A stretch of 64,000 nucleotides of DNA from assembly GCA_016193195.1 (NCBI GenBank), contig JACPSQ010000086.1, forward strand, positions 17,299 through 81,298, read 5' to 3'. Under the pieces are notes generated by a model. The model made no database searches, was not told the origin of the DNA, and worked only from the letters and a program-made list of their open reading frames with translations. Below, piece by piece: positions 1,883 to 59,341 of the stretch (within the stretch, counting starts at the first letter, position 1; each line of letters begins with the position of its first letter). This DNA is from Candidatus Omnitrophota bacterium (GTDB taxonomy: Bacteria > Omnitrophota > Gorgyraeia > Aquiviventales > Aquiviventaceae). The translations under genes and the position numbers were made by a program.

Positions 1883-1890
1883 GGCGTGGG

Positions 1891-11721: not shown

Positions 11722-11725
11722 ACCG

Positions 11726-15323: not shown

Positions 15324-15324
15324 C

Positions 15325-16401
15325 ATGGCTGATACGCGACGGATCGTCGTCATTGGAAGCAATTCGTTCTCGGGCAGTGACTTCATCGACCTGCTGCTGG
15401 AGGACCCGCGCAACGAAGTGATTGGGATCAGCCGCTCGCCTGAGAAGAGCGCCACCTTCCTTCCCTACAAACGGCGGCAGGGGGCTGCCTTCACGTTCTC
15501 TCAAATAGATGTGAACCGCAACATGTCAGAGCTGGTTCGCCTCCTTGACGACCGGAAGCCCAGCGTTGTGGTCAATTTCGCGGCGCAGAGCGAGGTGGCG
15601 CCGAGTTGGGACTATCCAGAGCAGTGGTTCCAGACCAACGTGGCCTCCCTGGTGGCCCTGGCGAATTACTTGAAAGACCAGTCATGGTGTTGGCGCTATG
15701 TCCACATTTCTTCACCGGAAGTGTATGGGACCTGCGTCGGGCGCGTCCGAGAAGATGCGCCGTTGAATCCCAGTACGCCGTATGCCGCTTCAAAAGCGGC
15801 CGCAGACCTGTTCCTGTTCACTTTGGTCAAGCAGTTCCGGTTTCCTCTCATTATGATCCGCGCCACCAACGTCTACGGGGCTGGCCAGCAGCCATGGAAG
15901 ATCATTCCAAAATCGATGATTTCGCTCAAGCGAGGGCAGACCATCCCCCTGCATGGTGGCGGAGTGGCCGTGAAGTCCTATATCCATATCCGGGACGTGT
16001 CACGCGGCGAGCTGGCTGCGATGGAGATCGGGACTCCGGGCTCGATCTATCACTTGTCTCCGGACCGTGGGTATGCGGTGCGGGAGGTGGTGGAGCGAAT
16101 CTGCGTACTGCTGGGCCGCGACAGGACGGTTACGACTACTGTGGTTGGTGAGCGTCCCGGACAGGATGCCGCGTACGTGATTGATTCCACGCGGGCCCGA
16201 ACCATGCTTGGCTGGGAACCGAAGGTCTCGCTGGACGAAGGATTGGCGGATGTGAAGCAATGGGTCGAGCGGTATTGGGACGTCCTCAAGGACGTTCCGC
16301 TGGAATATCAGCATCAGTCTGAACGCTATGCATTGGTGCCGCTTGAGGAGCGGGAGACGTTGGCGGCATCTGGGTCAGGTGAGCGGGGCGGGCGGCGATG
16401 A
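15325..16401 (+). CDS. NDP-sugar 4,6-dehydratase-like extended SDR
   Basis: IVVIGSNSFSGSDF, HISSPEVYG and YAASKAAAD (YxxxK). It resembles CDP-/GDP-hexose 4,6-dehydratases. Confidence 0.7.
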   Translation: MADTRRIVVIGSNSFSGSDFIDLLLEDPRNEVIGISRSPEKSATFLPYKRRQGAAFTFSQIDVNRNMSELVRLLDDRKPSVVVNFAAQSEVAPSWDYPEQWFQTNVASLVALANYLKDQSWCWRYVHISSPEVYGTCVGRVREDAPLNPSTPYAASKAAADLFLFTLVKQFRFPLIMIRATNVYGAGQQPWKIIPKSMISLKRGQTIPLHGGGVAVKSYIHIRDVSRGELAAMEIGTPGSIYHLSPDRGYAVREVVERICVLLGRDRTVTTTVVGERPGQDAAYVIDSTRARTMLGWEPKVSLDEGLADVKQWVERYWDVLKDVPLEYQHQSERYALVPLEERETLAASGSGERGGRR

Positions 16402-17480
16402 CACAGCCAGTCATGGCGATGGAGGAGGCAGTCCGGCCGCGCATCGCGAAAGCGGCGATTTTGGTGGAACAGAATGCGCCACTCCTCATTGCGGACATCG
16501 AGATCCCGCCGGTGGACGTCGGACAGGTACTCGTGCGGGTCCAGTGCAGCGGGATCTGCGGCAGCCAGCTGAATGAAATCAGCGGCCGTCGAGGGCAGGA
16601 CCGCTTCCTCCCTCACTTGCTGGGCCATGAAGGCGCAGGCCGGGTCGTGGAGGTGGGTCCGGGAGTCCGGAAGATCAAGCCTGGCGACCAGGTGGTGCTG
16701 CATTGGATGGAAGGCTCCGGTATTGAGTCTGCCCCCCCGATATTCCGGCTCGACGGGACCGTGATCAACGCGGGACGGGTGACGACGTTCAGTGAGTACA
16801 CGGTGGTGTCGGAGAACCGCGTCACGCCAATTCCACACGACATCAACCCGGGCGTCGCCTGCCTGCTCGGATGCAGTGTGACCACCGGATTGGGCATTGT
16901 CATTCACGAAGCCAACGTGACACCAGGCCAGTCGCTGGTGGTCTTCGGGGTGGGTGGGATTGGATTGAACGTGGTACAGGGAGCCGACCTGGTGCATGCC
17001 GATCCGATTGTCGCGGTGGACGTAGATGATCGGAAGCTCGTGCAGGCGTGCGCGTTCGGCGCGACCCACACGGTCTCTGTGGCGCAGGCTGAGACAGGGC
17101 TGGAGGCACGGTTGAAGGATCTGACCGAAGGAGCAGGGTTTGATGTCGCAGTGGACACCACAGGGAAGCGGGAGGTGTTTCAGCTCGCCTACCGCGTGAC
17201 CGGTGACGCCGGCAAGACCGTCATGGCCGGTGTGCATGACGCGCAGCAGCCGATCACGATTGACGCCTATCCGCTTCATTTTGGCCGCCGAATTATCGGG
17301 TCGCACGGCGGGGCAACGCAACCGGATTCGGACATCCCTCGCTACCTCCAGCTCTACCGCCGGAAGCGACTGAAATTAGATGAGCAGATTACCCATCGGT
17401 ACAGCCTGGATAACGTCAATGAGGCATTGGAGGCCGTCCGTCGGGGTGAGGCGGTCCGGTGTGTGTTGAAGATGGCATGA
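16398..17480 (+). CDS. Zinc-dependent alcohol dehydrogenase (MDR family)
   Basis: CSGICGSQLNE...GHEGAGRVVEVGPGV is the zinc/ADH signature. GVGGIGLN is the Rossmann GxGxxG. Confidence 0.75.
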   Translation: MTQPVMAMEEAVRPRIAKAAILVEQNAPLLIADIEIPPVDVGQVLVRVQCSGICGSQLNEISGRRGQDRFLPHLLGHEGAGRVVEVGPGVRKIKPGDQVVLHWMEGSGIESAPPIFRLDGTVINAGRVTTFSEYTVVSENRVTPIPHDINPGVACLLGCSVTTGLGIVIHEANVTPGQSLVVFGVGGIGLNVVQGADLVHADPIVAVDVDDRKLVQACAFGATHTVSVAQAETGLEARLKDLTEGAGFDVAVDTTGKREVFQLAYRVTGDAGKTVMAGVHDAQQPITIDAYPLHFGRRIIGSHGGATQPDSDIPRYLQLYRRKRLKLDEQITHRYSLDNVNEALEAVRRGEAVRCVLKMA

Positions 17481-18310
17481 AGGATCTCGACCGTCACTTT
17501 GTTGGTCAGGTCGTGGCTGTGACAGGTGGTGCGCGGGGCATCGGGAGGCGGATTGCCCACGCGTTTGGACAGGAAGGGGCCGCGGTGGTCCTCTGCGACA
17601 TCGATCAGCGGACCGGCGAGGCGGCGAAGGCTGAACTCCGCGACCGGGGTGCGACGGCGGAGTTCCTCCCGACCGATTTAAGTCAGCGCGGTGTGCCTCA
17701 AACGATGGTTCGTCAGATCGTCCAACAATTCGGACGGCTGGATATCTTGATCAATAACGCCCGGTGGACCGTGAAAGCCGGCTTGTTTGAGGAGGATGAG
17801 GAGAGTTGGGAACGCGGGATGGCGGTTTCCCTGCGGGCTCCGTTCTTTGCCGCTCAAGAGGCGATCCGCATGATGGAGAAGACGGGCGGGGGGAGCATTG
17901 TGAATATCAGTTCGGTCTTGGCGTTTGTGACGACCCCATCGGCCTCGGTCTCCTATCATGTGGCCAAAGCCGGACTGGTGCAACTGACGCGGTATCTGGC
18001 GGCCTCTGCCGGAAGGGTGGGGGTTCGGGTCAACGCCATCCTGCCCGGATTCATCGTACAACAGGAGCATTGGGATCGGTATACACAAGACGAGAACCAT
18101 CGCTATCGAGACCTCGCTGAATTTTGCCACCCCCTGCGGCATGTCGGCGGCTCTGACGATGTGGCGCACGCCTGCCTGTTTCTGTGTTCGCCGGAGGCCT
18201 CATTTATCACCGGTCAGTGCCTCATTGTTGACGGAGGATTGACGACGCAGGAACCGTTTGACTTACTGTTCGCGTTCGACCAGCAACGGGGGGAGGCGCC
18301 CTCGTCATGA
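17477..18310 (+). CDS. Short-chain dehydrogenase/reductase (classical SDR)
   Basis: VAVTGGARGIGRRIA, NNA, and YHVAKAGLV (YxxxK). Confidence 0.8.
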   Translation: MKDLDRHFVGQVVAVTGGARGIGRRIAHAFGQEGAAVVLCDIDQRTGEAAKAELRDRGATAEFLPTDLSQRGVPQTMVRQIVQQFGRLDILINNARWTVKAGLFEEDEESWERGMAVSLRAPFFAAQEAIRMMEKTGGGSIVNISSVLAFVTTPSASVSYHVAKAGLVQLTRYLAASAGRVGVRVNAILPGFIVQQEHWDRYTQDENHRYRDLAEFCHPLRHVGGSDDVAHACLFLCSPEASFITGQCLIVDGGLTTQEPFDLLFAFDQQRGEAPSS

Positions 18311-20346
18311 GATCCGTGATCTATTTGGCCGATTTGACGCATACCGGCCCCGTCATCTCTTCGAACGTCCATCCGCTGGCGGCCGGCTTGGTGGGCGCGT
18401 ATGTGGTGGAGCGTTGTCCTAACAGGATCGAGGTCGAGCTGTTCAAGTATCCGCAGGATCTCTCGGCCGCGATGGCACGCCGACGCCCGCGGCTAGTTGG
18501 ATTTTCGAATTATTCCTGGACCTGCAACCTCTCGTACGAGTATGCGCGGCAGATCAAACACGCCTATCCTGAGATCGTGATTGTTTTCGGGGGACCGAAT
18601 TATGGCTTGAGAGAGCAAGAAATGCTGGCCTTTTGGCAGCGGTACCCCCTGATCGACTTCTATCTCGTGAAGGAAGGGGAGCTGCCGATGGTCGAACTGC
18701 TGCACGGCCTTGAGGACTGCGGGTATGACCCCGCGGCGTTGAAGCGCTCCGGCAGATCCCTCCCGAACTGCCACTATCAGTGGCAGGGGACACTGGTGAC
18801 CGGTGAGATCCTCCCCCGCCTCACTGAGCTCGAGCAACTCCCTTCGCCCTACCTCATGGGCCTGATGGACAAATTCTTTGACGGGGTCCTCTCCCCGATG
18901 ATTCACACCACGCGCGGCTGTCCGTTTACCTGCACCTTCTGCAGTGAGGGGGCGACGTATTACAACAAGGTCGCGCAACGTGTCGGCATCGCCGAGGAGC
19001 TCGACTACATTGCCCAGCGGGTGGGCAGCGTGCCTGACCTCTACCTGACGGACGCCAATTTCGGGATGTATCAGCAGGATCGTGAAAAAGCCAAGATCAT
19101 CAGCTCGATTCAGCAGCGATACGGTTGGCCGAAGCGGCTCGTCGTCTCAACAGGGAAGAACCAGAAGGAGCGCGTCATCGAGGTGGCCTCGATGCTCAAT
19201 GGGTCCCTGAACGTGGCCGCGTCCCTCCAATCCACCGACCCCACCGTCCTGCAGAATATTCAACGAGCCAACATCTCCTTGGACGCGCTCAACGTCATGG
19301 CGAAGCAGACCACCGAGACGGGCGCCGATACCTACACCGAACTCATCTTGGGTCTTCCGGGAGACTCCAAACAGGCCCACACCAAATCGTTGCGAGACGT
19401 GGTCGAAGCGGATTTGGGAATCGTGCGGATGTACCAACTGATTATGCTTCCGCAGACCGAGCTGAACACCCCTGAGACCCGCCAGCGGTATGCCATGAAG
19501 ACCAGGTTTCGGATCATGCCTCGATCCTTTGGACGCTACGACCTCCTGGGCAAGGCGATCCTTGCGGTGGAGTCCGAAGAAATCTGTGTGGAGAACAGCA
19601 CCCTGACGTTTGAGGACTACCTCGAGTGTCGGGAGCTGAACCTGACCGTCGAGATCCTCCATAACGGCAGAGTCTTCGTCGAGCTGCAGGGGTTGTGTAA
19701 GTGGCTGGGCTGCTCATGGTTTGATTTCCTCTTGCGCGTGCATCAGCAGCGACGATCCTCCCACGAGGCCCTGAGGCGGTTCTACGAGACCTTCCGTGAG
19801 GAAACCACCAAGCGGTTGTGGGCGACACGAGAGGAGCTGGAGGGGTACGTCAGTCAACACCTTGACGAGCTGCTGGGTCATGAGGAAAGCACCAATGAGA
19901 TGGCGACGTCGAAAGCGATCGCCTTTTTCCAATTGCAGGGGACGCTGCATGACGTTTTGTTTGAGGAGATGACCGCACTCCTCAACGAACGAGGGTGTCT
20001 TGATGAGGTGATGGGAGTGTACATCAGGGAATTGAGAGACTACAGTCAATGTCGAAAGGCCCGGCTGACCGAAGGGCGCGAATACCATGGGAGGTTCCAT
20101 TTTGACTTCCCTGGAATCGGGGAGCATCACTACGCGGTGGACCCTCGGGACTATTTCCTCGAGGGGAGGACTGTTGAGCTGCGGTTCTGTCACAGCGCCA
20201 GGCAGCGCGAGATGATCCAGGGATATCTCCGACAGTATGGCAACACCCTTGACGGGATGGGGAGAATCTTGATGCGTGTCTGGCCGACCACACGTCTCTT
20301 CCGAGAAGTCCTCTGCCAGGAAGAGCACGCGCTGGCAGCCGCGTGA
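18307..20346 (+). CDS. Cobalamin-binding radical SAM enzyme (class B; likely methyltransferase)
   Basis: An N-terminal B12-binding-like region (VGFSNYSW...IVIVFGGPN), then TTRGCPFTCTFCSEG, which is CxxxCxxC. Confidence 0.8.
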   Translation: MRSVIYLADLTHTGPVISSNVHPLAAGLVGAYVVERCPNRIEVELFKYPQDLSAAMARRRPRLVGFSNYSWTCNLSYEYARQIKHAYPEIVIVFGGPNYGLREQEMLAFWQRYPLIDFYLVKEGELPMVELLHGLEDCGYDPAALKRSGRSLPNCHYQWQGTLVTGEILPRLTELEQLPSPYLMGLMDKFFDGVLSPMIHTTRGCPFTCTFCSEGATYYNKVAQRVGIAEELDYIAQRVGSVPDLYLTDANFGMYQQDREKAKIISSIQQRYGWPKRLVVSTGKNQKERVIEVASMLNGSLNVAASLQSTDPTVLQNIQRANISLDALNVMAKQTTETGADTYTELILGLPGDSKQAHTKSLRDVVEADLGIVRMYQLIMLPQTELNTPETRQRYAMKTRFRIMPRSFGRYDLLGKAILAVESEEICVENSTLTFEDYLECRELNLTVEILHNGRVFVELQGLCKWLGCSWFDFLLRVHQQRRSSHEALRRFYETFREETTKRLWATREELEGYVSQHLDELLGHEESTNEMATSKAIAFFQLQGTLHDVLFEEMTALLNERGCLDEVMGVYIRELRDYSQCRKARLTEGREYHGRFHFDFPGIGEHHYAVDPRDYFLEGRTVELRFCHSARQREMIQGYLRQYGNTLDGMGRILMRVWPTTRLFREVLCQEEHALAAA

Positions 20347-21152
20347 GGCCGTGCGGGACGATGGAAGGACGCGTGGCCCTCGTCACCGGGAGCAGCAAAG
20401 GAATCGGCAGGGCCATTGCCCGATCGCTCGCCCGGGGAGGAGCGAAGGTCGTCGTGACGGCGCGGGGCCCTGAGGCACTGGAGCAGGCGGCTCAGGAAGC
20501 CAACGGCTACGGCGGGAACGTGCTGCCGATTGCCGCGGACGCGACAGACCCGAACGCGGTCCGAGCCGTCGTCGAGTCGGCGGTGCGGCACTTCGGTGGG
20601 CTGGACATCTTGGTCAATAACGTGGGAGGCGCCAACCGCATTGCCGAGTTCGCGGAGTTGACGAAGGAGGACTGGATCCACACCTTTGAGCTCAACGTCA
20701 TGACGGTGGTGTACTTTGTCCAAGCGGCCCTTCCCTGGCTCCGAAAATCAGCAGGCGGTCGCATCATCAACATGGCCTCCATTACGGGCGTCGAACCCAG
20801 CCAGCTCGCTCCACACTATGCGGCGAGCAAAGCCGCCATCATTAATCTGAGTAAACATCTCGCGAACCTGTGCGCTCCCAATGGCATCCTCGTCAATGTG
20901 GTCTGTCCCGGTCAGGTGAGCTCCGAGGCCAGGCAGGGGTTGGCCGACTATGTGGCACGGACGCACAACATCCCCCTGGCGGACGCGCGCGTCCGCATCG
21001 ACGCGGAGGGAGCGTCAAGGATTCCTCTTGGCCGACTCGGTGTATGCGAAGACGTGGCTGAACTCGTGTCGTTTCTTGCTTCAGAGAAGGCCGGCTGGAT
21101 CACCGGAGAGTGCTTTCATGTGGACGGAGGAAAACACCGCTCAGCATTCTGA
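20343..21152 (+). CDS. Short-chain dehydrogenase/reductase
   Basis: VALVTGSSKGIGRAIA, NNVG, and YAASKAAII (YxxxK). Confidence 0.8.
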   Translation: MRPCGTMEGRVALVTGSSKGIGRAIARSLARGGAKVVVTARGPEALEQAAQEANGYGGNVLPIAADATDPNAVRAVVESAVRHFGGLDILVNNVGGANRIAEFAELTKEDWIHTFELNVMTVVYFVQAALPWLRKSAGGRIINMASITGVEPSQLAPHYAASKAAIINLSKHLANLCAPNGILVNVVCPGQVSSEARQGLADYVARTHNIPLADARVRIDAEGASRIPLGRLGVCEDVAELVSFLASEKAGWITGECFHVDGGKHRSAF

Positions 21153-22389
21153 GCGGGAGGATCACGTGGAACAGGTGAGCATCGAATCTATCACCCAGCG
21201 GGCGCAGCGCTGCGGCGTCTGCGGGGAGAGACCTGAGGCGGTCCTCGATCTGCCAGGCCTTCCTCTCACAGGTCTCTACGCAAAGGCGTTCAACAACGAG
21301 TCTGTGGCAGGGATCGATCAGCACTTGGCCGTCTGCCCCTCCTGCGGTCACGGGCAACTGGTCTATCAGGTGCGTCCCTCGCTGCTCTACGGCGAGAGCT
21401 ACAGCTTTCGAACCTCGGTGAGCGACACCGCGAAGCAAGGCACCGGCTTTTTTCTCTCGAAACTACGCGAGCTCAGCGCTGACAGGAGCTTTCATCGTGT
21501 CCTGGACGTAGGGTGTAACGATCTCCATCTCCTCCGGCAGCTTGATGGATGGGTGGAGTCACGGGTGGGGATCGATCCGGTATGGAATGCCGATGAGAAG
21601 CGCCAGGCCCAGCCGGATGAACGAGACGCTCGCATCAACGTCATCGGGGCAACAGTGGAGGAGGTCGACCTGCCTCAGGCCTTGGAGGCCCCACCCGATC
21701 TGGTGCTGTGTCGGCACACGCTGGAGCATATCGGGGACCCGCGCGCTGCGCTCTCAAAGTTGTTCGAGGCCTCCACGGAGGATGCCCTTTTTCTCTTCGA
21801 GGTACCTGGCTTCGAGGCCCTCGTCCGCCGGTTGCGATTCGATCACGTGTTCCATCAGCACGTGCAGTATTTTTCACTAAGCTCGTTCCAGAGGCTGCTG
21901 GGGGAGGTCGGCTTCCACTACCGGGCCCATTGGGTGAACTATCACGAGTGGGGAGCCCTGGTGATGGCATTTGTGAAACAGCGTGGAGGGGGACTGCGCC
22001 AGGCCGACGAGGCACCACCCGCGGTGACTCCGGCGTCAGTCCAGGCGGCCTACGAACTCTTCAGACGGCAGATGGCTTCGACGAATGAGGTACTCAGCAC
22101 GTTTGAAGGCACCCGTGTCTACGGCTACGGCGCGGCGGCCATGTTGCCAATCTTAGCCTACCACCTTGGCAACGACCTCTCGCTGCTGACCGCGGTCCTG
22201 GACGATGATCCGACAAAGGATGGGCTGCACTATGGGAACCTGCCGTTGACGATCCGGTCGCCGTCTGGGGTAGCGGATCTCGAGGGCGCCTCGATCTTCC
22301 TGACGGCGCTAGACAACGTGAAGCCCATCCTCACCAAGTTGTTGGCGAGGCGTCCCAAGCACATCATCTATCCACTCCATCTGATCTGA
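21118..22389 (+). CDS. Sugar C-methyltransferase, TylCIII/NovU-like (Zn-ribbon + SAM MTase + C-terminal domain)
   Basis: An N-terminal Cys4 cluster (CGVCG...CPSCGHG), then VLDVGCNDL (SAM motif I) and a long C-terminal domain. This architecture matches NDP-hexose 3-C-methyltransferases. Alternative GTG start at 21166. Confidence 0.65.
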   Translation: MWTEENTAQHSEREDHVEQVSIESITQRAQRCGVCGERPEAVLDLPGLPLTGLYAKAFNNESVAGIDQHLAVCPSCGHGQLVYQVRPSLLYGESYSFRTSVSDTAKQGTGFFLSKLRELSADRSFHRVLDVGCNDLHLLRQLDGWVESRVGIDPVWNADEKRQAQPDERDARINVIGATVEEVDLPQALEAPPDLVLCRHTLEHIGDPRAALSKLFEASTEDALFLFEVPGFEALVRRLRFDHVFHQHVQYFSLSSFQRLLGEVGFHYRAHWVNYHEWGALVMAFVKQRGGGLRQADEAPPAVTPASVQAAYELFRRQMASTNEVLSTFEGTRVYGYGAAAMLPILAYHLGNDLSLLTAVLDDDPTKDGLHYGNLPLTIRSPSGVADLEGASIFLTALDNVKPILTKLLARRPKHIIYPLHLI

Positions 22390-22390
22390 T

Positions 22391-23173
22391 ATGGACCTTG
22401 GCATTCGTGGACGACGGGCATTAGTGACAGGCGCGGGACGCGGCATCGGCCGCTCAATCGCCCTGTGCCTCGCCCGGGAAGGGGTGCGGGTGGTGGTCGT
22501 CTCGCGCCGTGCGAGGGATCTGAACACGCTCGTCGAGGACATGGGGGGAGCCCAGGCAGGGCATCTGAGCGTGCCGTTGGATTTGATGTCGACCGGAGCG
22601 CCCACGAGGTTGATGAAACGGTTGAAGGCGTTGGACGTTAGTCCCATTGACATCGTGATTCATAATCTTGGCGGTACCTTAGAGATCAGCGATCCGTTCT
22701 GCCCCGTCTCGGACTGGCGGAAGGTGTGGCGTTTCAACCTTGAGGTGGCCATCGACTTGAATGTGCGATTGCTCCCCTCGATGCGGCGGCGGCGGTGGGG
22801 ACGGGTGGTGCATATCTCGTCGATTGCCTCCATGGAGAATCACGGGCCGGTGACGTACTGCGCCGTCAAGGCGGCCCTCACCGCCTACGCGAGAAGTTTA
22901 GGTCGTGTGCTGGCCTCTGAAGGGGTGGTCGTGACCGCGGTGCTCCCTGGAGCGATTTTCACCAAAGGCGGCTACTGGGATCTGGCGGCTCAAACGCGTC
23001 CTGATCACGTGAAGCAATACCTGCAAGAGCGCATGGCGAGTCACCGCTTTGGGCAGCCGGACGAAATCGGCAGCGCGGTGGCCTTTCTGTGCTCAGAGCA
23101 GGCGTCCTTCTTCATCGGCTCGATCGTCCCCATCGATGGCGGGCAGGGACGGGGGTATTTCGGGCAGTCATGA
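22391..23173 (+). CDS. Short-chain dehydrogenase/reductase
   Basis: ALVTGAGRGIGRSIA and YCAVKAALTAY. Confidence 0.75.
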   Translation: MDLGIRGRRALVTGAGRGIGRSIALCLAREGVRVVVVSRRARDLNTLVEDMGGAQAGHLSVPLDLMSTGAPTRLMKRLKALDVSPIDIVIHNLGGTLEISDPFCPVSDWRKVWRFNLEVAIDLNVRLLPSMRRRRWGRVVHISSIASMENHGPVTYCAVKAALTAYARSLGRVLASEGVVVTAVLPGAIFTKGGYWDLAAQTRPDHVKQYLQERMASHRFGQPDEIGSAVAFLCSEQASFFIGSIVPIDGGQGRGYFGQS

Positions 23174-23955
23174 TGACGATGATGAATAACGACTTGCGCC
23201 GGAAAATCATCGACGTGGTCTACCGAGGAAAGGATGGGCACATCCCGAGCGCCTTCTCCATCGTGGATATCGTGGCGCTGTTGTATCGCGAATACCTGAA
23301 GGTGGATCCTCGCCATCCTCAGGATCCGAATCGAGATTACTTCATCTTGAGCAAAGGCCACGGGTGCGTTGCGCTCTATGTTGTGCTGGCGGAGCGCGGC
23401 TTCCTCAGCCAGCGCGATCTCGACGCCTTCTGCACGTCAGGCGGTATCCTCGGAGAGCATCCCGACTGCACGAAGGTGCCGGGGGTTGAAGCCTCAACCG
23501 GTTCGCTCGGCCACGGTTTCCCATTTACCGTGGGTCTGGCATTGGGTCTTCGAATCCTCGGCATGACCAACCGGATCTTCGTCCTCGTCGGTGATGGGGA
23601 GTGCCACGAAGGGACGGTGTGGGAAGCGGCCAATGTGGCGAATAATCTTCAGCTTGGCAACCTGTGTGTGATCGTGGATTGGAATGGATCCGCCGCCCAG
23701 CTCATGCCGCGGGACGATCTGCCGGCCAAATGGAGGGCCTTTGGGTGGAAGACCCAGGTCGTTGACGGGCACTCCGCGCCGGAGTTAGGGGCAGCCTTCG
23801 ACCGTATCGTGTTCCAGCCCGCGGGCACGCCGACGGTGGTCATCGCCAGGACGGTGAAGGGCAAGGGGGTCCCCATGCTCGAAGGTCACGGCGTGTGGCA
23901 CCACCGCATTCCGACCGCGGAAGAACACCAACAGATGCGAGAGGTATTGGCCTGA
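23170..23955 (+). CDS. Transketolase, N-terminal (ThDP/PP-binding) subunit
   Basis: GHIPSAFSIVDIVALLY...ILSKGHG...GSLGHGFPFTVGLAL...VLVGDGECHEG are the transketolase ThDP-binding motifs. ATGA-coupled to the upstream gene. Confidence 0.8.
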   Translation: MMTMMNNDLRRKIIDVVYRGKDGHIPSAFSIVDIVALLYREYLKVDPRHPQDPNRDYFILSKGHGCVALYVVLAERGFLSQRDLDAFCTSGGILGEHPDCTKVPGVEASTGSLGHGFPFTVGLALGLRILGMTNRIFVLVGDGECHEGTVWEAANVANNLQLGNLCVIVDWNGSAAQLMPRDDLPAKWRAFGWKTQVVDGHSAPELGAAFDRIVFQPAGTPTVVIARTVKGKGVPMLEGHGVWHHRIPTAEEHQQMREVLA

Positions 23956-24917
23956 TGGGCGGCCCCAACGTGATGCGACAACAATTTGCCAACACCCTGC
24001 TGCAGGTGGGCCAGGAAGATCCCCGACTCGTCGTCCTCGTGGGTGACATCAGCCACTTCATCCTGCAGCCGTTCGCCCAGGCGTGCCCCGGGCGGTACTA
24101 CAACGTGGGCATCTGCGAACCGACCATCCTGAGTATGGCGGCGGGACTGGCAAAGACGGGGTTGTCTCCTGTCGTCCACACGATTGCGCCCTTCATTGTG
24201 GAGCGTTCATTTGAACAAATCAAACTCGACTTCTGCTATCAACAGCTCGGCGGCACGCTGATCACCATTGGGAGCGCCTTTGACTACTCCAATCTCGGGT
24301 GCACCCACCATTGCTACGATGATTTCGCCTTGCTGAAGAGCCTCCCGAACACGCAGATTGTGTACCCCGCCAGCCCCGAGGAGTTTGATGCGCTCTTTCG
24401 CCAGACGTACCGGAGCGGCAAGGTCACCCTGGTTCGCATGCCGTCGCACACGCATGGGCAGATGTTTCGCCATGACGACATCCGCTTCGGCACTGGTGTG
24501 AGACTGACAGACGGCAGCGATCTCACACTGATCGCGATCGGACCCCAACTGCGCCATGCCCTTGCGGCTCGTGATGCCCTGGGCGAGAGGGGGTGGCAGA
24601 CGGACATCCTCTATCTCCACACGATTCACCCGATTGACACGGAACTCATTCGGACCAGTGTCCGCAAGACGCGGCATGTCCTTGTCATCGAGGAGCATAC
24701 CTGGACCGGCGGCGTGGGATCAGAGGTGCTTCGGGCGACACGGGGCATCCCACGTGTGCAGCATGCCTTTCTTCATCTCCCGGAGGCGTTCATTCGGGAC
24801 TATGGATCCTACGAAGAGCACTGTGAACGATTGGGTTTCAGCCGCCACGGCATCATCAAGACCGTCGAGAGGGAATTCAGGGCGAGTCCCGCCCTTGTCG
24901 CAGGGAGCCGAACATGA
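23955..24917 (+). CDS. Transketolase, C-terminal (pyrimidine-binding + C-terminal) subunit
   Basis: A Transket_pyr-like domain plus a C-terminal domain. The start overlaps the stop of the N-terminal subunit (ATGA at 23954-23957). Confidence 0.8.
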   Translation: MGGPNVMRQQFANTLLQVGQEDPRLVVLVGDISHFILQPFAQACPGRYYNVGICEPTILSMAAGLAKTGLSPVVHTIAPFIVERSFEQIKLDFCYQQLGGTLITIGSAFDYSNLGCTHHCYDDFALLKSLPNTQIVYPASPEEFDALFRQTYRSGKVTLVRMPSHTHGQMFRHDDIRFGTGVRLTDGSDLTLIAIGPQLRHALAARDALGERGWQTDILYLHTIHPIDTELIRTSVRKTRHVLVIEEHTWTGGVGSEVLRATRGIPRVQHAFLHLPEAFIRDYGSYEEHCERLGFSRHGIIKTVEREFRASPALVAGSRT

Positions 24918-25615
24918 GTCCGCGAGTGGCGAAAGAGGCGCAGAACCAAGTGCAATTGGACACCTACGAGGGGCAGGGACCGGTCCGGCTCGGACCGTGG
25001 ACCAGCCATATCTGGCGCACCGATCCACGGCACCTCGGATTTCTCTTGGCCAGGTACAAGTTCACGGCCAAGATGCTGACCGGCAAGCGCGCCGTGCTGG
25101 AGATTGGCTGCGGGGATGGATTCGGGATGCCGGTCGTGCTCCAGACCGTTGAGACGATCCACGGCATTGATTTGGAGCCGGCCGTCGTGGAAGATGCGCA
25201 GGCGCGCTTTGCAGAAGAAGGCGAAACGCGATGCACCTTCGCGGTCCACGACATGACCGCCGAGCCGCTCGTGTCCCGATTTGATGCCGCGTATTCGTTG
25301 GATGTCATCGAGCATATCCCGCCGGCCTTGGAGGACCGCTTCCTAGCCAACGTCAGCCGCTCCCTCCGCGAGCACGGGATGTGCATCATGGGAACACCGA
25401 ACGTCGCAGCCAAGGAACATGCCAGCGAGGGGAGTCGAGCCGGTCATATCAACCTCCAGAGCGCCGAGACATTGAGGGACCTGCTGTTTCGCTACTTTCA
25501 CCATGCGTTGATCTTTTCGATGAACGACGAGATCGTGCACACCGGCTTCTCCCCCATGGCGCACTACCTCATCGGGATCGGTATCGAGGTCAACGAGGAG
25601 GCCCTTCGAGGATGA
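24914..25615 (+). CDS. Class I SAM-dependent methyltransferase
   Basis: VLEIGCGDGFG is motif I, and the length fits a small-molecule MTase. Confidence 0.7.
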   Translation: MSPRVAKEAQNQVQLDTYEGQGPVRLGPWTSHIWRTDPRHLGFLLARYKFTAKMLTGKRAVLEIGCGDGFGMPVVLQTVETIHGIDLEPAVVEDAQARFAEEGETRCTFAVHDMTAEPLVSRFDAAYSLDVIEHIPPALEDRFLANVSRSLREHGMCIMGTPNVAAKEHASEGSRAGHINLQSAETLRDLLFRYFHHALIFSMNDEIVHTGFSPMAHYLIGIGIEVNEEALRG

Positions 25616-27207
25616 TTGCCAAGGTGCTGATCGTCGTGCCGCCGCTGGTGAACAAGGACGAGGAGGGTGATGCCGCTCCGGATCGGCCGGATTTCGAGGC
25701 GTACCGGCTGGTGTCTCCGGTGGAGCCGACGAGTGTCGCCGCGGATTTGCTCCATCGGGGGTTTACGGTGAAGCTCTTCGACCTCGGCGCGTACACGACC
25801 GGCCGGTTCGAGCGGTATGAGGCGTACCTGCGAGACGTCCAGCCCGATGCGGTCGTCCTGGTGCAGTCGATCCTCACCTTCGCCACCGCGCAGGACTGGG
25901 ACGGCAAGCGGGTTTTCGAGCTGGCCCGCCACGCGGTGCCCCATGTCCTGACGGTGCTCACAGGCGGCCAGGCGACCAACTATCCCGGCCGCGCCGTGGA
26001 AGCCCGTATCTGCGACTATTCCATCAAGGGGGAAGTGGATTTCGCGGTCGCGGAACTGTTGACGACGCTGAACCAGGGGGGCGATCCCTCCGGTGTCCGC
26101 GGCGTGGCGTTCCGCACGACCTCCGGCGAGGTCTTCGTATCCGAGGGCTATCCGGTCGTCGATGTCTTACAGCTGCGGCTTCCCGCCTACCACGTGCTTG
26201 ATGCCGATCAGCACCTCCAGTATACCCAGACGTTGGAACGCGCCAAGATCCGCTTTCCGGAGAAAAGCCGGCGGTATCGGGACATCATGACCTCGCGCGG
26301 CTGTGTCTTGCGTTGCTCATTCTGCTGCGTCGCCCATCTGCGAGGCGAACGACAGAAATACCGCCGCAAACCGCTCGACCTCGTCATGGCGGAGATCGAG
26401 CAGGCGCTCGAGGGCGGGATCGAGGAGATTCATTTTTTTGACGACCTCTTCGTACAGAACGAGGCGCAGATCCTGGAGTTCACCGATGAGCTGCGCCGCC
26501 GCCGCCTCACCTTCCATTGGTTCGTCGCCCAGGGCCAGCCGTTGTGGCCGCTGACTCGCGATGCGCTGGCGGCGATGAAGGAAACCGGGATGTACCGGAT
26601 CATCTGCCCGCTGGAATCCGGCAGCAATCGGGTGCTGAAGGAAGTGGTGGGTAAGGTCTACTCGAGAGCGGAGCACCACCATAACGTGGTGCGATGGGCC
26701 CACGAGCTGGGCCTCGAGATCATCGGGATGTTCGTCGTCGGGATGCCGGGGGAGAAGCGACACGAGATCTTGGAGACCGTGCGCTTCGCCGAGGCGCACC
26801 CGGAGATCGACTACTCCGTGTTTTCGATCGCCACCCCCATGGTCGGGACGCGCCTCATGCGGCAGGTGATGCGGGAGGGCCGGCTCGATGATCAAGACAA
26901 GATCAACCGGGTCATCAAACGCACGGTGGCGTTGTATGAGACGGAGGAGTTTAAGGCGTATGAGATGGGCGTCATCCGGGCGTTCGACTGGGACCGGATC
27001 AACTTCCCCACCCTGGAGCGCCAGATGAAGTACACCCGCATGGTGGGGATCACGCTCGAGCAACTGGACATCGTGCGGGAATACTCCAAGAAGACGTTCT
27101 ACCGCTTCTTCCCGGATTACGACGGGCCGCTCTCCTTTAAGGAGCTGTACGAGCAGCCAGACCTGTTTAAGGAACTGGAGCCGCTCATCCCATCAACCTT
27201 GTACTGA
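25612..27207 (+). CDS. Cobalamin-binding radical SAM enzyme (class B) #2
   Basis: The N-terminal IAKVLIVVPPL... region is B12-binding-like. SRGCVLRCSFCCV is CxxxCxxC. The ATG at 25612 lies inside the longer ORF 25381-27207. Confidence 0.8.
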   Translation: MIAKVLIVVPPLVNKDEEGDAAPDRPDFEAYRLVSPVEPTSVAADLLHRGFTVKLFDLGAYTTGRFERYEAYLRDVQPDAVVLVQSILTFATAQDWDGKRVFELARHAVPHVLTVLTGGQATNYPGRAVEARICDYSIKGEVDFAVAELLTTLNQGGDPSGVRGVAFRTTSGEVFVSEGYPVVDVLQLRLPAYHVLDADQHLQYTQTLERAKIRFPEKSRRYRDIMTSRGCVLRCSFCCVAHLRGERQKYRRKPLDLVMAEIEQALEGGIEEIHFFDDLFVQNEAQILEFTDELRRRRLTFHWFVAQGQPLWPLTRDALAAMKETGMYRIICPLESGSNRVLKEVVGKVYSRAEHHHNVVRWAHELGLEIIGMFVVGMPGEKRHEILETVRFAEAHPEIDYSVFSIATPMVGTRLMRQVMREGRLDDQDKINRVIKRTVALYETEEFKAYEMGVIRAFDWDRINFPTLERQMKYTRMVGITLEQLDIVREYSKKTFYRFFPDYDGPLSFKELYEQPDLFKELEPLIPSTLY

Positions 27208-28143
27208 ATGCTGCTCATCGTGGGCTCTGGGGGGTTGTTGGGATCGCATGTGGCGGCCTATTTCCTGCAGGCAGGGATGCCGGTGGTCTGCGCCTCGCAC
27301 AAGCCTGGCGCGGACCTCAAACTGGATCTTGCGCAGCCGCTCGGCGACTTCGCCAAGCAGCTGCCGAAGGGGATTACGCACGTGTTTGTATGCAGCAGTA
27401 TCACAAGCCTCGATGCCTGTGCGCGCGACCCGGAGACGACCAGGCGATTCAACGTGACGCACACCATCGCGTTGCTGGAGCAGCTGCTGGCGAAGGGCAT
27501 CCGGCCGATCTTCTGCTCGTCTGACCTCGTCTTCAAGGGGGACCGCGGGAACTATCGCGAAGATGATCCCCGGGAGCCGACAACCGAGTACGGCCGCCAG
27601 AAGCATACGGTGGAGGAATTCCTCCTCGGCCAAGCCCAGAGGTCTCTCATCATCCGGATGAGCAAGCTCTACAGCCTGGCTCCCGACGATCCCTCGCCGA
27701 TCGGGCAGATGCTCACCGCCCTGAAGCGTGGGCAGTGCGTGCGCGGTGCAGACGATCAGACAATCTGTCCCACGTGCGTGGAGGATATCCCGAAGGCGCT
27801 GCATGCCTTGCTGAACCTCCGTGCCACCGGGGTCTACCATGTCGCTTCGTCGCAGCGGGACACGCGCTACACCCTGGCACGGCGCCTGGCGGCTGCCATT
27901 GGACGGGAGAGACTCGTGCAGCGGTGCTCCATCCGAGACTTCACCTTCGTGGAGCCACGGCCAACCGACAATTCGTTGGACGTCAGCAGGTTCCTGTCCG
28001 CGACACCATGTCGATTCACCACGCTCGATGAGCGTCTCCCTGAGATCTTGCGCAGGCGGGGTACCATTGACACGTCAGGAGGACTCGATGGGCAAGGAAA
28101 TCAATCTGCTCGACCGGTACCCGCGCTTCAAACGGCCCCTTGA
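27208..28143 (+). CDS. dTDP-4-dehydrorhamnose reductase-like (RmlD-type) NAD(P)-dependent reductase
   Basis: LLIVGSGGLLGSH, a short (311 aa) extended SDR lacking the 4,6-dehydratase insertions. Confidence 0.6.
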   Translation: MLLIVGSGGLLGSHVAAYFLQAGMPVVCASHKPGADLKLDLAQPLGDFAKQLPKGITHVFVCSSITSLDACARDPETTRRFNVTHTIALLEQLLAKGIRPIFCSSDLVFKGDRGNYREDDPREPTTEYGRQKHTVEEFLLGQAQRSLIIRMSKLYSLAPDDPSPIGQMLTALKRGQCVRGADDQTICPTCVEDIPKALHALLNLRATGVYHVASSQRDTRYTLARRLAAAIGRERLVQRCSIRDFTFVEPRPTDNSLDVSRFLSATPCRFTTLDERLPEILRRRGTIDTSGGLDGQGNQSARPVPALQTAP

Positions 28144-28750
28144 AGCGCGCGCCAGACTGGTGACCGCGGAGCATCGCGCCATTGCGGGGCGGTTTGGAAA
28201 GGAGTATTTCGACGGCGATCGCCTGAACGGCTATGGAGGGTATACGTATCATCCGCGCTTCTGGACGGAGACCGTGAAGCGCTTCCGCGACTACTACAAC
28301 CTCGCAGAGGACGCGGCGGTACTCGATGTCGGGTGCGCCAAGGGGTTTATGATGTACGACTTCAAACAGCTCATGCCGAAGATGGTGATTGCGGGGATTG
28401 ATATTTCGCAGTACGCCTACGATCACGCTATCGAGGATATGAAACCCTATATCCGTGTGGGGGATGCGACGAAGCTACCCTATCCAGATCGCTCATTTGA
28501 CCTCGTGATTTCGATTAATACCATCCATAATCTTCCACTTGAGGAATGCCGACAGGCCCTGCGAGAGATTCAACGGGTCTCCAGAGCCCATGCCTTCATT
28601 ACCGTGGACGCCTGGAGAACGACAGAGGAACGAGAGCGCCTCACCCAGTGGATCTTGACGGCGAAGACCTATATGGCGGTCGAGGATTGGCAACGGCTCT
28701 TTGCTGGAGTCGGCTATACCGGTGATTACTACTGGTTTATCGCCGAGTGA
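28088..28750 (+). CDS. SAM-dependent methyltransferase
   Basis: VLDVGCAKGF is motif I. The ATG at 28088 lies inside ORF 27821-28750. Confidence 0.6.
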   Translation: MGKEINLLDRYPRFKRPLEARARLVTAEHRAIAGRFGKEYFDGDRLNGYGGYTYHPRFWTETVKRFRDYYNLAEDAAVLDVGCAKGFMMYDFKQLMPKMVIAGIDISQYAYDHAIEDMKPYIRVGDATKLPYPDRSFDLVISINTIHNLPLEECRQALREIQRVSRAHAFITVDAWRTTEERERLTQWILTAKTYMAVEDWQRLFAGVGYTGDYYWFIAE

Positions 28751-28754
28751 CGCG

Positions 28755-30311
28755 ATGACCGTGCGTCCTGAAGAACGGGGTTATCAGAGGAAGATCAAGA
28801 GCCGGGAGGAGCTTCGCCAGATTATTGGTCCACGTCCACGTCCACGGAAGGTGATCATGTGTCATGGGACGTTTGATCTGGTCCATCCAGGCCACATCCG
28901 CCATCTCATGTACGCCAAAAGCAAGGCAGACATCTTGATCACCAGCTTGACCTGTGATGCCCATATCGCGAAGGCCAATTTTCGCCCCTTTGTCCCACAA
29001 GATTTACGGGCGATGAACCTCGCCGCGCTTGAAGTCGTCGATTACGTCATGGTGGATGAGAACCCCACCCCGATTGACACTATCGCCTTCTTGCAACCCG
29101 ATTTCTTCGCGAAAGGGTACGAGTACTCGAAAGATGGTCTCCATCCCAAGACTCGCGAAGAGCTCAAAGTGTTAGAGTCATACGGTGGAGAGCTCATTTT
29201 TACGCCCGGTGACATCGTCTATTCTTCCTCACTCCTTCTTGAGTCCGGACCACCGAAACTCTCTGCAGAAAAACTGGTGACCCTGATGGAGTCAGAGGGG
29301 ATTACGTTCGACGGTCTCCGTAAGGCGCTGGACGACTTTGACAGAATTCGAGTCCACGTGCTCGGCGACACCATTGTCGACTCGCATACGTACTGCAGTC
29401 TGATTGGCGCGACGGCAAAGACCCCGACCTTCAGTGTGAAATATGAACGAAAGGTTGATTTTGTCGGCGGAGCGGGTGTCGTCGCCAAGCATCTTCGGAA
29501 AACGGGGGCTGCGGTCACGCTGTCCACCGTGTTGGGCGAAGATCCCCTCAAAGATTTTGTCCTGAACGATCTCGCGACCAGCGGGGTCGAGTGTGGACCA
29601 TGTGTTGATCACACCAGACCGACCACACAAAAGAACGTATTTATCGCGGATGGGTACCGGATGCTAAAGGTGGATCGACTCGACAACCGTCCAATTTCTG
29701 ACAAGACACTTGAACAGCTCTGCGATTCGCTGACGTCCTCACACGTCGATGCGGTGCTCTTCAGTGATTTTCGCCACGGGATCTTTAGCTCTCAAACGAT
29801 TCCTCATCTAACCTCGGCGATCCCAGGAGGCATATTCCGAGCAGCGGATAGTCAAGTCGCGAGTCGCTGGGGCAATATCCTGGAGTTTCAAGGATTCGAT
29901 CTCATCACCCCCAATGAGCGGGAAGCGCGATTCGCCTTAGGAGATCAGGATTCTGTCATTCGCCCACTGGCCTACACCCTCTACATGAAAGCGAAGTGCA
30001 AGGTCCTCATGCTCAAACTGGGGGATCGGGGATTGGTGACGTACAGGGCGCCCAGCGAGGATGTTCGTTCCTTCTTCACGATTGATAGTTTTGCAGAGCG
30101 GGTGGTTGATCCAGTGGGAGCTGGCGATGCCCTCCTGGCGTATGCCACCCTGGCGCTGGTCGCCACGCAGTCCCCCGTGATTGCCTCAATCCTTGGGGCC
30201 ATGGCTGCCGCGGTGGCTTGTGAGCACGAAGGGAATCTTCCCGTTTCCCTTGAGCAGATTCTTGAGAAACTCCAAGCCGTCGAACGCCAGGTTCGCTACG
30301 AGTACGTCTAG
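28755..30311 (+). CDS. Second reversed-order HldE-like bifunctional nucleotidyltransferase / PfkB kinase
   Basis: N-terminal KVIMCHGTFDLVHPGHIRHL is the HxGH nucleotidyltransferase motif. The C-terminus carries DPVGAGDALLA (PfkB). It is a paralog of 11726-13279. Confidence 0.75.
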   Translation: MTVRPEERGYQRKIKSREELRQIIGPRPRPRKVIMCHGTFDLVHPGHIRHLMYAKSKADILITSLTCDAHIAKANFRPFVPQDLRAMNLAALEVVDYVMVDENPTPIDTIAFLQPDFFAKGYEYSKDGLHPKTREELKVLESYGGELIFTPGDIVYSSSLLLESGPPKLSAEKLVTLMESEGITFDGLRKALDDFDRIRVHVLGDTIVDSHTYCSLIGATAKTPTFSVKYERKVDFVGGAGVVAKHLRKTGAAVTLSTVLGEDPLKDFVLNDLATSGVECGPCVDHTRPTTQKNVFIADGYRMLKVDRLDNRPISDKTLEQLCDSLTSSHVDAVLFSDFRHGIFSSQTIPHLTSAIPGGIFRAADSQVASRWGNILEFQGFDLITPNEREARFALGDQDSVIRPLAYTLYMKAKCKVLMLKLGDRGLVTYRAPSEDVRSFFTIDSFAERVVDPVGAGDALLAYATLALVATQSPVIASILGAMAAAVACEHEGNLPVSLEQILEKLQAVERQVRYEYV

Positions 30312-37309: not shown

Positions 37310-37319
37310 AAGGAGACCC

Positions 37320-51697: not shown

Positions 51698-51713
51698 AAG
51701 GAGGCAGGCGCGG

Positions 51714-51917
51714 ATGCCCAAGTTTCTGAAAGGGAACTACCGGTTGCCGAAAGGCAAGGCCACACTAGCAAGGAAACAGGCGCGCAAGGATCTGACCCAG
51801 CAATTCGAGGAACGCGCGCTGGCGAAGCTGGGAGGAAGCCTCTGCTTCGTCATGAAGAAAGGGACGTTCGTCTGGACCGACGAGGCTGATGAAGGCGCTC
51901 GCCAAGCATCTGGTTGA
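51714..51917 (+). CDS. Small basic hypothetical protein (67 aa)
   Basis: A strong Shine-Dalgarno (AAAGGAGG, 51697-51704) lies 9 nt upstream of the ATG. The N-terminus is Lys/Arg-rich. No known domain. Confidence 0.3.
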   Translation: MPKFLKGNYRLPKGKATLARKQARKDLTQQFEERALAKLGGSLCFVMKKGTFVWTDEADEGARQASG

Positions 51918-52914: not shown

Positions 52915-52917
52915 GCC

Positions 52918-59180: not shown

Positions 59181-59204
59181 CAGGCTGCGGAAATACTCGG
59201 CTCA

Positions 59205-59313: not shown

Positions 59314-59341
59314 CAGCACCCTGCTAGACTAACACCGTGCG

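Follow-up and report, generated by a model that had tools for sequence, protein, structure and literature searches.

The 64,000-nucleotide window analysed here, from contig JACPSQ010000086.1 of an uncultured Candidatus Omnitrophota bacterium (a metagenome-assembled genome), contains a co-directional array of + strand genes that runs from about 6.0 to 63.7 kb (window G+C about 0.6). This array is probably a nucleotide-sugar 'factory' of about 57 kb for a cell-surface glycan, built from interchangeable modules, in which three modules would each use a different class-B radical S-adenosylmethionine (SAM) enzyme to tailor an activated sugar. The three enzymes are named below rSAM1 (18307-20346), rSAM2 (25612-27207) and rSAM3 (52918-54522). 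The genes, their domains and folds, the conservation of the families and their neighbourhoods are established, and they present known enzyme classes in an undescribed setting, arranged as mobile cassettes common to many phyla. We propose, tentatively, that the three families might represent an unrecognised and phylogenetically widespread radical chemistry on bacterial surface sugars, including iterative side-chain C-alkylation (ethyl or isopropyl type) and a three-protein, cobalamin (B12)-dependent modification of nonulosonic acids. If this is true, the surfaces of many environmental bacteria would carry sugars that await description. If the families alkylate sugars, a whole class of C-alkylated or radically modified surface sugars, nonulosonic acids included, is absent from the inventories of glycans and from what mass spectrometry searches for in environmental glycomics; the structure of surface glycans, hence recognition by phages, predators and immune systems, would also be tied to cobalamin availability. 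The value of the observation lies in the conserved cassettes, which are open to testing because the rSAM1 cassette occurs in cultured Sneathiella and Catenovulum. A literature search for a link between B12-dependent or other radical SAM enzymes and O-antigen, nonulosonic acid, flagellin glycosylation or heptose returned nothing relevant.

A first-pass annotation of the sequence had recognised the three genes as class-B radical SAM enzymes, and this was confirmed. Each is an intact open reading frame (ORF) with a CxxxCxxC motif, which starts at residue 205 in rSAM1 (CPFTCTFC), 231 in rSAM2 (CVLRCSFC) and 212 in rSAM3 (CSLICRFC), and each matches Pfam Radical_SAM above the 29.5-bit cut-off (31.1, 62.2 and 50.7 bits, respectively). 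The cobalamin-binding-like N-terminal domain that had been attributed to all three was found in two of them: rSAM1 and rSAM3 score 40.4 and 58.0 bits with Pfam PF02310 (cut-off 32.1), and rSAM2 scores 28.7 bits, just under the cut-off. AlphaFold models of rSAM2 (pLDDT 83) and rSAM3 (pLDDT 78) were compared with the PDB using Foldseek. Both match TsrM, OxsB, MgmA, AprD4, TokK and CysS at near-equal template modelling (TM) scores of 0.53-0.63, and both superpose on TsrM, OxsB, TokK and CysS with the N-terminal domain included. Because the scores are nearly the same for all solved class-B enzymes, the fold is confirmed but the chemistry is not. From profiles and models together, a Rossmann-type B12-binding domain of the class-B kind is predicted at the N-terminus of rSAM1 and rSAM3, and is borderline in rSAM2.

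Profile assignment to class-B subfamilies, which the first-pass annotation had called for, succeeded in part. rSAM1 can be placed in the TokK/CysS/KedN5 clade. An NCBIfam scan, however, gave no direct subfamily assignment, as none of the three proteins reaches any curated cut-off, and sequence and profile searches of the PDB were informative for rSAM1 only. This result and the low PF02310 score of rSAM2 weigh against the overall interpretation given above. The methylation of unactivated carbons that had been expected is likely and well supported by homology for rSAM1 alone (TokK, CysS and a conserved tryptophan, see below); the nearest families of rSAM2 are mixed, rSAM3 resembles no characterised enzyme, and these two may or may not methylate.

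The three proteins are not recent duplicates, since rSAM2 and rSAM3 are 22.5% identical and rSAM1 has no significant similarity to either. Each belongs to a separate, strongly conserved and uncharacterised family that recurs in the sugar loci of many phyla, and the carriers of the three families come from more than ten phyla. B12-radical SAM genes recur in such loci in unrelated phyla, often two or three per locus: three lie within 10 kb in Nitrospina, three in a Binatia locus, three together with one SPASM-type radical SAM gene in locus L096, and in a Nitrospirales locus an rSAM1-like gene overlaps an rSAM2 gene. Since each family recurs in the sugar loci of unrelated phyla, this clustering is not due to chance. 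That the genes lie together incidentally, or are decayed or inactive, is extremely improbable: nothing was found in its favour, the seven genes of the first-pass annotation are intact + strand ORFs at the coordinates it gave, start and stop codons overlap by 4 nucleotides or abut (18307/18310, 25612/25615, 27207/27208), four Logan contigs, independent assemblies with identical DNA, encode identical proteins of the same lengths (679, 423, 233, 531 and 220 aa), and orthologs 50-84% identical keep conserved neighbours across phyla.

rSAM1 (679 aa, + strand) is a probable cobalamin-dependent, possibly iterative, C-methylase. Compared with the PDB by phmmer, it matched TokK (1.8e-42, over residues 23-455) and CysS (4.6e-27); the profile of its family matched the same two proteins (1.3e-58 and 2.4e-45) and no other PDB entry. 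TokK/ThnK, which carry out carbapenem C6 alkylation, and CysS/KedN5, which convert methoxy to isopropoxy or tert-butoxy groups, are iterative cobalamin-dependent radical SAM C-methylases. rSAM1 shares with TokK and CysS the cobalamin domain followed by a radical SAM core, a comparable length (681 and 645 aa for the known enzymes) and the tryptophan under the cobalt: in the alignment W71 is the counterpart of TokK W76, and it does not vary among 14 diverse orthologs. Among characterised enzymes Trp76 is common to CysS only, and it is not general in B12-radical SAM methylases (TokK paper). The best NCBIfam model is KedN5 (NF033712; 149.6 bits, cut-off 700, model positions 16-396 of 624), and on these sequence criteria rSAM1 is related to the TokK/ThnK/CysS/KedN5 clade but lies outside the curated KedN5 family.

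The likeness to TokK does not extend to the whole protein, which counts against the interpretation proposed here. No alignment to TokK is obtained for the C-terminal third of rSAM1 (about residue 456 onwards); in TokK the C-terminal domain binds the pantetheine arm (TokK paper), and the active-site W215 of TokK is Glu in rSAM1. As the C-terminal third is conserved inside the rSAM1 family, these differences point to a different substrate class. The genes around rSAM1 are nucleotide-sugar genes, and its context is neither that of a pantetheinylated carbapenam nor that of an aromatic acid.

A database search with rSAM1 gave more than 1,600 matches; the best 120 are full-length and at least 51% identical. 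By their names or titles, relatives at this level come from Chlamydiota, Binatia, Fibrobacterota, Nitrospirota, Nitrospina, Leptospira, Verrucomicrobiota, Planctomycetota, Flavobacteriales and Vicinamibacteria. Among cultured bacteria, Sneathiella carries a relative at 50-53% identity and Catenovulum one at 47%, and the cassette is present in the strains Sneathiella glossodoripedis JCM 23214, Sneathiella sp. HT1-7 and Catenovulum sediminis D2. A scan of one genome per species gave 467 relatives, from which 17 loci, with 3 more from exact-protein look-ups, made up a sample of 20 loci with relatives at least 46% identical. Two short-chain dehydrogenase/reductase (SDR) genes directly follow the rSAM1 ortholog in 15-16 of the 20. 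Thiamine-dependent enzymes were encoded in about 15, either of the acetolactate synthase (ALS)-like type (11/20) or as an E1 alpha/beta pair (7-8/20). The other partners were a zinc-dependent alcohol dehydrogenase (Zn-ADH; 7/20), a domain-swapped HldE (6-7/20), the class I methyltransferase MT-I-b (6-8/20) and an FkbM methyltransferase (6-8/20). The gene order E1 alpha-E1 beta-ALS-SDR-FkbM ... Zn-ADH-HldE-rSAM-SDR-SDR-GT2 (GT2, glycosyltransferase family 2) is common to Leptospira, Vicinamibacteria and Catenovulum; in Sneathiella and a metagenome-assembled genome of Flavobacteriales it is incomplete, with some of the genes on the other strand.

In the window, rSAM1 is the third gene of a four-gene module, Zn-ADH - SDR-a - rSAM1 - SDR-b (16398-21152, + strand). 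In the most closely related locus, L099, a 4,6-dehydratase gene directly abuts the gene of a C-methyltransferase, and the flanks are 66-92% identical to those of the window. Because the flanks are alike and the block is missing, the four genes can be regarded as an inserted module. Distant rSAM1 relatives (31-38% identity) were also observed near NeuB and CMP-sugar synthetase genes in seven loci (L028-L030, L035, L040, L043 and L046), of which L043 is a Pelagibacteraceae (SAR11-type) locus; this links TokK-like enzymes also to nonulosonic-acid loci.

The rSAM1 reaction that we propose would use one SAM to methylate Co(I) and a second SAM to produce a 5'-deoxyadenosyl radical. The radical would abstract a hydrogen from an unactivated sp3 carbon, which would then take a methyl group from methylcobalamin, possibly repeatedly. 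The most likely target, as judged from the neighbouring genes, is a side chain of a nucleotide-activated heptose or 6-deoxysugar, either an O-methyl group or a branch of the acetyl or hydroxyethyl type, and the product would carry an ethyl or isopropyl-type substituent on this side chain. A side-chain target is suggested by the partners, namely two SDRs, the Zn-ADH, thiamine-dependent acyl-branching enzymes and O-methyltransferases. KedN5 is a methoxy-extending radical SAM enzyme that is paired with an O-methyltransferase. The extension of methoxy groups by an O-methyltransferase and a CysS/KedN5-type enzyme is known chemistry (PMC12846815). A thiamine enzyme acting with a reductase is the established route to acyl-branched sugars, as in YerE/YerF (PMC9306805; PMC4753412).

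The accompaniment of rSAM1 and rSAM2 by an E1 alpha/beta pair, split transketolases and SDRs (ALS-like enzymes in ortholog loci) matches the branch-then-reduce scheme of YerE/YerF and AviB1/AviB2; unlike the YerE systems, the window encodes three thiamine systems, none of which is a single-chain enzyme of the YerE type. We know of no acyl-branched-sugar pathway that includes a B12-radical SAM enzyme.

rSAM2 (531 aa, + strand) is a radical SAM enzyme of class-B fold, as judged from Pfam, its CVLRCSFC motif and the model, and it belongs to an uncharacterised conserved family with 154 database matches, 50-81% identical in Chloroflexota, Nitrospirota, Rhodospirillales and marine metagenomes. It lies in what looks like a 6-deoxysugar pathway, to judge from the gene order 4,6-dehydratase / C-methyltransferase / SDR / (split transketolase) / rSAM2 / RmlD-like. 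The head of this cassette (13276-16401, + strand) is formed by an E1 alpha/beta thiamine-dependent pair (13276-15323; Pfam E1_dh and Transket_pyr/Transketolase_C) and an NDP-hexose 4,6-dehydratase-like gene (GDP_Man_Dehyd; TIGR01181, 190 bits), and the block is colinear in L099 and in two other loci (L091 and L103). The cassette also contains the SDR-c gene and the N and C halves of a split transketolase (22391-24917, + strand, Pfam), colinear and 85-92% identical in L099 and present also in L123 and L101. Its last gene (27208-28143, + strand; Pfam RmlD_sub_bind, 122.7 bits) encodes an RmlD-like reductase of NDP-4-keto sugars, which usually follows rSAM2. Full-length rSAM2 orthologs were identified in 37 loci of a metagenome scan; 29 of these loci leave space for a gene on the downstream side, and in 20 of the 29 a reductase of this type comes immediately next. 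The 37 loci contain E1 alpha (13), MT-I-b (12), SDR-c (11), the Zn-ribbon C-methyltransferase (8) and the 4,6-dehydratase (7), and class I methyltransferase genes flank rSAM2 in most of them.

C-methylation is the most likely role of rSAM2 in this setting; almost equally plausible is a radical dehydration or rearrangement with a subsequent reduction. In the preferred scheme, rSAM2 would methylate a non-enolisable carbon of an NDP-4-keto sugar, as GenK or MoeK5 do on their substrates, and the RmlD-like enzyme would then reduce the product; the radical step would replace or supplement the usual epimerase ahead of the final 4-keto reduction. GenK, GenD1 and MoeK5 are B12-radical SAM C-methylases that act on sugar carbons in antibiotic pathways (PMC9204698; PMC5819394). 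They provide a functional precedent: the class and the kind of target, unactivated sugar carbons, are those proposed for rSAM2 and possibly rSAM1, but the known enzymes act on antibiotic intermediates and not on surface-glycan precursors.

The competing possibility, serious but in our view somewhat unlikely taken as a whole, is that rSAM2 is not a methylase and catalyses either a radical 1,2-diol dehydration of a sugar coupled to ketone reduction by the RmlD-like protein (a radical deoxygenation), as in AprD4/AprD3, or a rearrangement or contraction of the sugar ring of the HpnJ/OxsB kind. AprD4 pairs with the reductase AprD3 and works without cobalamin, so that the fold alone is no guarantee of cobalamin binding. 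The closest PDB sequence to rSAM2 is AprD4, a diol dehydratase (1.3e-11; profile 1.1e-15), ahead of MgmA, TsrM and OxsB, and the best NCBIfam match is HpnJ (125.8 bits), followed by the SD1168 P-methyltransferase family (106.4), a ladderane radical SAM (80.9), the MgmA type (76.9) and AprD4 (59.1). HpnJ works on a glucosamine ring and, like BchE and OxsB, is not a methylase; it shares one similarity-network neighbourhood with Fom3, MoeK5 and SD1168 (PMC9204698). The B12 domain of rSAM2 is under the Pfam cut-off, a precomputed PF02310 match is missing in about half of its orthologs, and the reductase in 20/29 loci mirrors the AprD4/AprD3 pairing; with the two best matches, these points count against a methylase. 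On the other side, the alignment to AprD4 spans only the radical SAM core (residues 204-428), whereas residues 41-137 of rSAM2 align to the cobalamin domain of TsrM; the models SD1168 and MgmA, of methylases or putative methylases, also score on rSAM2, and class I methyltransferase genes lie beside it in most loci. All the family scores are far under their cut-offs, so that none is diagnostic. Both HpnJ, which performs the ring contraction of the hopanoid cyclitol ether, and AprD4/AprD3, a diol dehydratase and its reductase, act on aminosugar rings, and the pair of rSAM2 and the RmlD-like protein resembles AprD4/AprD3; unlike in these systems, no hopanoid or aminoglycoside genes lie nearby, and the N-terminal domain of rSAM2 is nearer to a true cobalamin domain (TsrM). 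The residue under the cobalt was sought in rSAM2 through the TsrM alignment, in which Arg69 of TsrM falls in an insertion relative to the profile.

Two family assignments of rSAM2 were rejected. HpnJ itself requires 577.6 bits with TIGR03471 (125.8 obtained), and no hpn genes are present in the window or in the 37 ortholog loci. One rSAM2 ortholog carries the JGI name 'phosphonoacetaldehyde methylase'; a phosphonate enzyme like Fom3, the cytidylyl-hydroxyethylphosphonate methylase, was rejected because the window ORFs scanned contain no phosphoenolpyruvate mutase domain. For AprD4 the signals diverge: 59.1 bits with NF033070 (cut-off 500) is too low for membership of that family, but a neighbouring reductase gene, the other AprD4 trait, is present.

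The methyltransferases that had been reported to accompany the three enzymes were all recovered. The Zn-ribbon sugar C-methyltransferase of TylC3/TcaB9 type (21118-22389, + strand) matches Methyltransf_13 (35.0 bits, cut-off 31.3) and Methyltransf_23 (73.0), with the C-terminal Methyltransf_14 domain at 20.9, under its 23.5-bit cut-off, and it aligns over its full length with PDB 4rv9, a TylC3-type D-mycarose 3-C-methyltransferase (2.8e-19), and with TcaB9 (7e-16). It thus resembles the earlier-named TylCIII-like enzymes in Zn ribbon and class I fold, the similarity being modest (E about 1e-15 to 1e-19), and differs in that its context is a surface glycan and not a macrolide. Virenose in Coxiella is a surface-glycan context for such a C-methyltransferase. 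The class I SAM methyltransferase MT-I-a (24914-25615, + strand; Pfam Methyltransf_25/11/12/31), the stop codon of which overlaps the rSAM2 start, occupies the same position in L099 at 91% identity. MT-I-b (28088-28750, + strand; Methyltransf_11/25) recurs beside rSAM1 and rSAM2 orthologs, at 57% identity next to the Nitrospina rSAM1 ortholog and at 65-76% next to the rSAM2 orthologs of five loci (L091, L103, L105, L107 and L117). The FkbM methyltransferase (38687-39793, + strand) matches Methyltransf_21 (PF05050; 59.8 bits, cut-off 22.7) and TIGR01444 (64.7, cut-off 37.7). It is followed by a fourth radical SAM gene (39736-41019, + strand), absent from the first-pass annotation, which is of the SPASM/twitch type and not B12-dependent (Radical_SAM 74.1, SPASM 29.9 bits). 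The pairing of the two genes (38687-41019 in the window) recurs in a Nitrospina locus (L007/L014; 446-2463 in L007) and in L096 (17432-19331). In another locus, L093, a SPASM-type radical SAM gene (8732-9856) lies directly upstream of an rSAM2 ortholog.

rSAM3 (534 aa, + strand; Pfam B12-binding 58.0 bits, Radical_SAM 50.7 bits, motif CSLICRFC) belongs to an uncharacterised family and has only fold-level similarity to the solved class-B enzymes. It has 1,457 database matches and is 62-84% identical across Omnitrophota, Rokubacteria, Dehalococcoidia, Chloroflexota and Elusimicrobia. Its surroundings at 49-62.6 kb are a nonulosonic-acid biosynthesis locus of legionaminic/pseudaminic type, as predicted from the gene content, in which all tested components are present. 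The module (49045-62632, + strand) encodes a CMP-sugar synthetase, an SDR, NeuB, a NeuC-type epimerase, a PglD-like acetyltransferase, a HisF/HisH/WbuX amidotransferase set, a CBS-nucleotidyltransferase, a 4,6-dehydratase and an aminotransferase, matched by Pfam NeuB (338 bits), CTP_transf_3 (70), Epimerase_2 (281), GDP_Man_Dehyd (242), DegT (323), PglD_N/Hexapep and CBS-NTP_transferase, and by the WbuX model TIGR03573 (338.5 bits, cut-off 203), as for a legionaminic-acid-type pathway.

NeuB is encoded in all six rSAM3 loci that were sampled, the window included. Two further genes precede rSAM3. The first gene of the rSAM3 module is a conserved 67-aa ORF (51714-51917, + strand), with the pattern FLKGNY...ALAKLGGSxCFV and the sequence MPKFLKGNY...ALAKLGGSLCFV, which lies between the NeuB and MptE-like genes behind a strong ribosome-binding site and is missing from the first-pass annotation. 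Such a small ORF is present upstream of rSAM3 in five of the six loci, with homologs in L094, L095, L097 and L098, and at a threshold of E<=1e-3 its protein family comprises 58 cluster representatives, most of them 60-110 aa long. The second gene (51889-52914, + strand) encodes a short, 341-aa MptE-like/DUF115 protein (Pfam MptE-like 52.1 bits, cut-off 34.6), the usual upstream partner of rSAM3; in five of the six loci, L094-L097 among them, a gene of this kind (333-350 aa) ends at the rSAM3 start. rSAM3, the MptE-like nucleotide-binding protein and the 67-aa protein might together modify a nonulosonic acid or its CMP-activated form.

Another substrate for rSAM3 has to be weighed, the 67-aa protein itself, which could be modified by a chemistry of the kind found in ribosomally synthesised and post-translationally modified peptides (RiPPs) or in carrier proteins, the MptE-like protein then acting on it, for example by attaching nonulosonic acid. 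The best NCBIfam matches of rSAM3 are of the RiPP type, ApyD and rSAM_ocin_1, which, together with the small ORF of a real protein family kept upstream in 5/6 loci, makes a peptide substrate possible and counts against a sugar substrate; in L098 the small ORF adjoins the radical SAM gene without any MptE-like gene. The scores are, however, far under the cut-offs (85 versus 750 bits for ApyD, 69 versus 282 for rSAM_ocin_1), the rSAM3 module lies inside nonulosonic-acid biosynthesis genes in 6/6 loci, and in the loci examined it is accompanied by no RiPP recognition element (RRE) domain and by neither a protease nor an exporter of the sort usual in RiPP clusters. A peptide substrate is consequently considered unlikely, and modification of the nonulosonic acid or its CMP form is preferred.

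The MptE-like protein has the MptE-like/DUF115 domain of the Maf core and lies, like Maf/PseD, in a nonulosonic-acid locus, but it has about half the Maf length and no flagellin gene is present in the window. Its identification as a Maf/PseD flagellin glycosyltransferase was rejected (341 versus about 600 aa; NF050051 for PseD, 24.3 versus 670 bits; no Maf match in the PDB), and so was a flagellin-glycosylation island, as no flagellin gene was found among the window ORFs scanned. In the rSAM3 sequence, residues 301-325 form an insertion in the core, in which C307, H314, C318 and H322 are invariant across 14 diverse orthologs and the model contains no regular secondary structure. This insertion may be an additional metal site.

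Every substrate and reaction proposed above for rSAM1, rSAM2 and rSAM3 is put forward from homology and gene context. Against the interpretation as a whole, an Rfam scan of the window found no cobalamin riboswitch, and cob and btu genes are absent from the window. A surface glycan fits best. The first-pass annotation had proposed a cell-surface glycan locus, and the gene content supports it: the nonulosonic-acid module with its NeuB, CMP-synthetase and NeuC genes, heptose-type activation genes, an ATP-binding cassette (ABC) exporter, a glycosyltransferase of family GT4 and a PMT_2 protein. We also considered a cluster for a secreted glycosylated small molecule, similar to an aminoglycoside or nucleoside antibiotic. 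The B12-radical SAM enzymes with sugar substrates that are known so far belong to the antibiotic pathways of gentamicin, moenomycin and fosfomycin (GenK, GenD1, MoeK5, Fom3; PMC9204698), and to date it is likewise in antibiotic pathways that sugar methylases of this class, C-methyltransferases of the TylC3 type and branching enzymes of the E1 type have been described; moreover, the 57 kb contain few recognisable glycosyltransferases, one GT4 and one PMT_2, both upstream. These points speak for a small molecule, and the scarcity of glycosyltransferases also counts against the interpretation proposed here. The small-molecule reading is nevertheless very unlikely. Against it stand the nonulosonic-acid module with its CMP-synthetase, the heptose-type activation genes, the MsbA/PglK-like ABC exporter, PMT_2 and GT4; genes for Wzz, a Polysacc_synt flippase, GT2 and GT4 are present in ortholog loci; unrelated environmental genomes with the cassettes number in the hundreds; and no polyketide synthase or non-ribosomal peptide synthetase genes for an aglycone were seen in the window.

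Among the other genes of the array are those that resemble a heptose or octose phosphate supply logic, for which the lincosamide octose route is a parallel: a GmhB-like phosphatase, a transaldolase (TIGR02134, 340 bits) and a GmhA-like isomerase, at 6690-8007 and 46628-47218 (+ strand). The isomerase, the transaldolase and a swapped HldE are found together also in L094, and the phosphatase and transaldolase in L122 and L129. Two HldE-like bifunctional enzymes (11606-13279 and 28701-30311, both + strand) have the reversed order, nucleotidyltransferase first and PfkB kinase second, and both score under the HldE cut-offs; this architecture recurs beside the rSAM1, rSAM2 and rSAM3 orthologs of other phyla.

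A second split transketolase is encoded at 33458-35223 (+ strand). With the E1 alpha/beta pair and the split transketolase of the rSAM2 cassette (23170-24917), this makes three two-subunit thiamine-dependent systems in one locus, which the first-pass annotation had not mentioned and which points to several steps in which C2 or acyl units form branches or lengthen a chain. In ortholog loci, a YerE-like single-chain ALS-type enzyme often takes the place of the two-subunit systems. The remaining tailoring genes of the window include many SDR/epimerase genes, a UDP-galactopyranose-mutase-like gene, aminotransferases, and acyl- and formyl-transferases; the MsbA/PglK-like ABC exporter is its export gene.

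The G+C content is 0.69-0.71 across 48001-52000, at the start of the nonulosonic-acid module, compared with 0.55-0.65 elsewhere in the array, a rise that suggests a mosaic origin of the modules. Six ORFs without a Pfam match were rescanned at E<=5 and gave no usable match. Two adjoining ORFs at 36990-38601 (+ strand), with N-terminal parts that resemble over-extended starts, have no Pfam match; the pair is conserved (31-46% identity) beside swapped HldE and MT-I-b genes in three loci (L093, L113 and L116), and the first ORF has an HxD...H pattern reminiscent of Fe/2-oxoglutarate dioxygenases. Upstream of the array (116-5836), a PMT_2 (ArnT-like) membrane glycosyltransferase gene on the + strand and GT4, formyltransferase-like and polysaccharide deacetylase genes on the - strand resemble a lipid A modification set of the 4-amino-4-deoxyarabinose (Ara4N) type.

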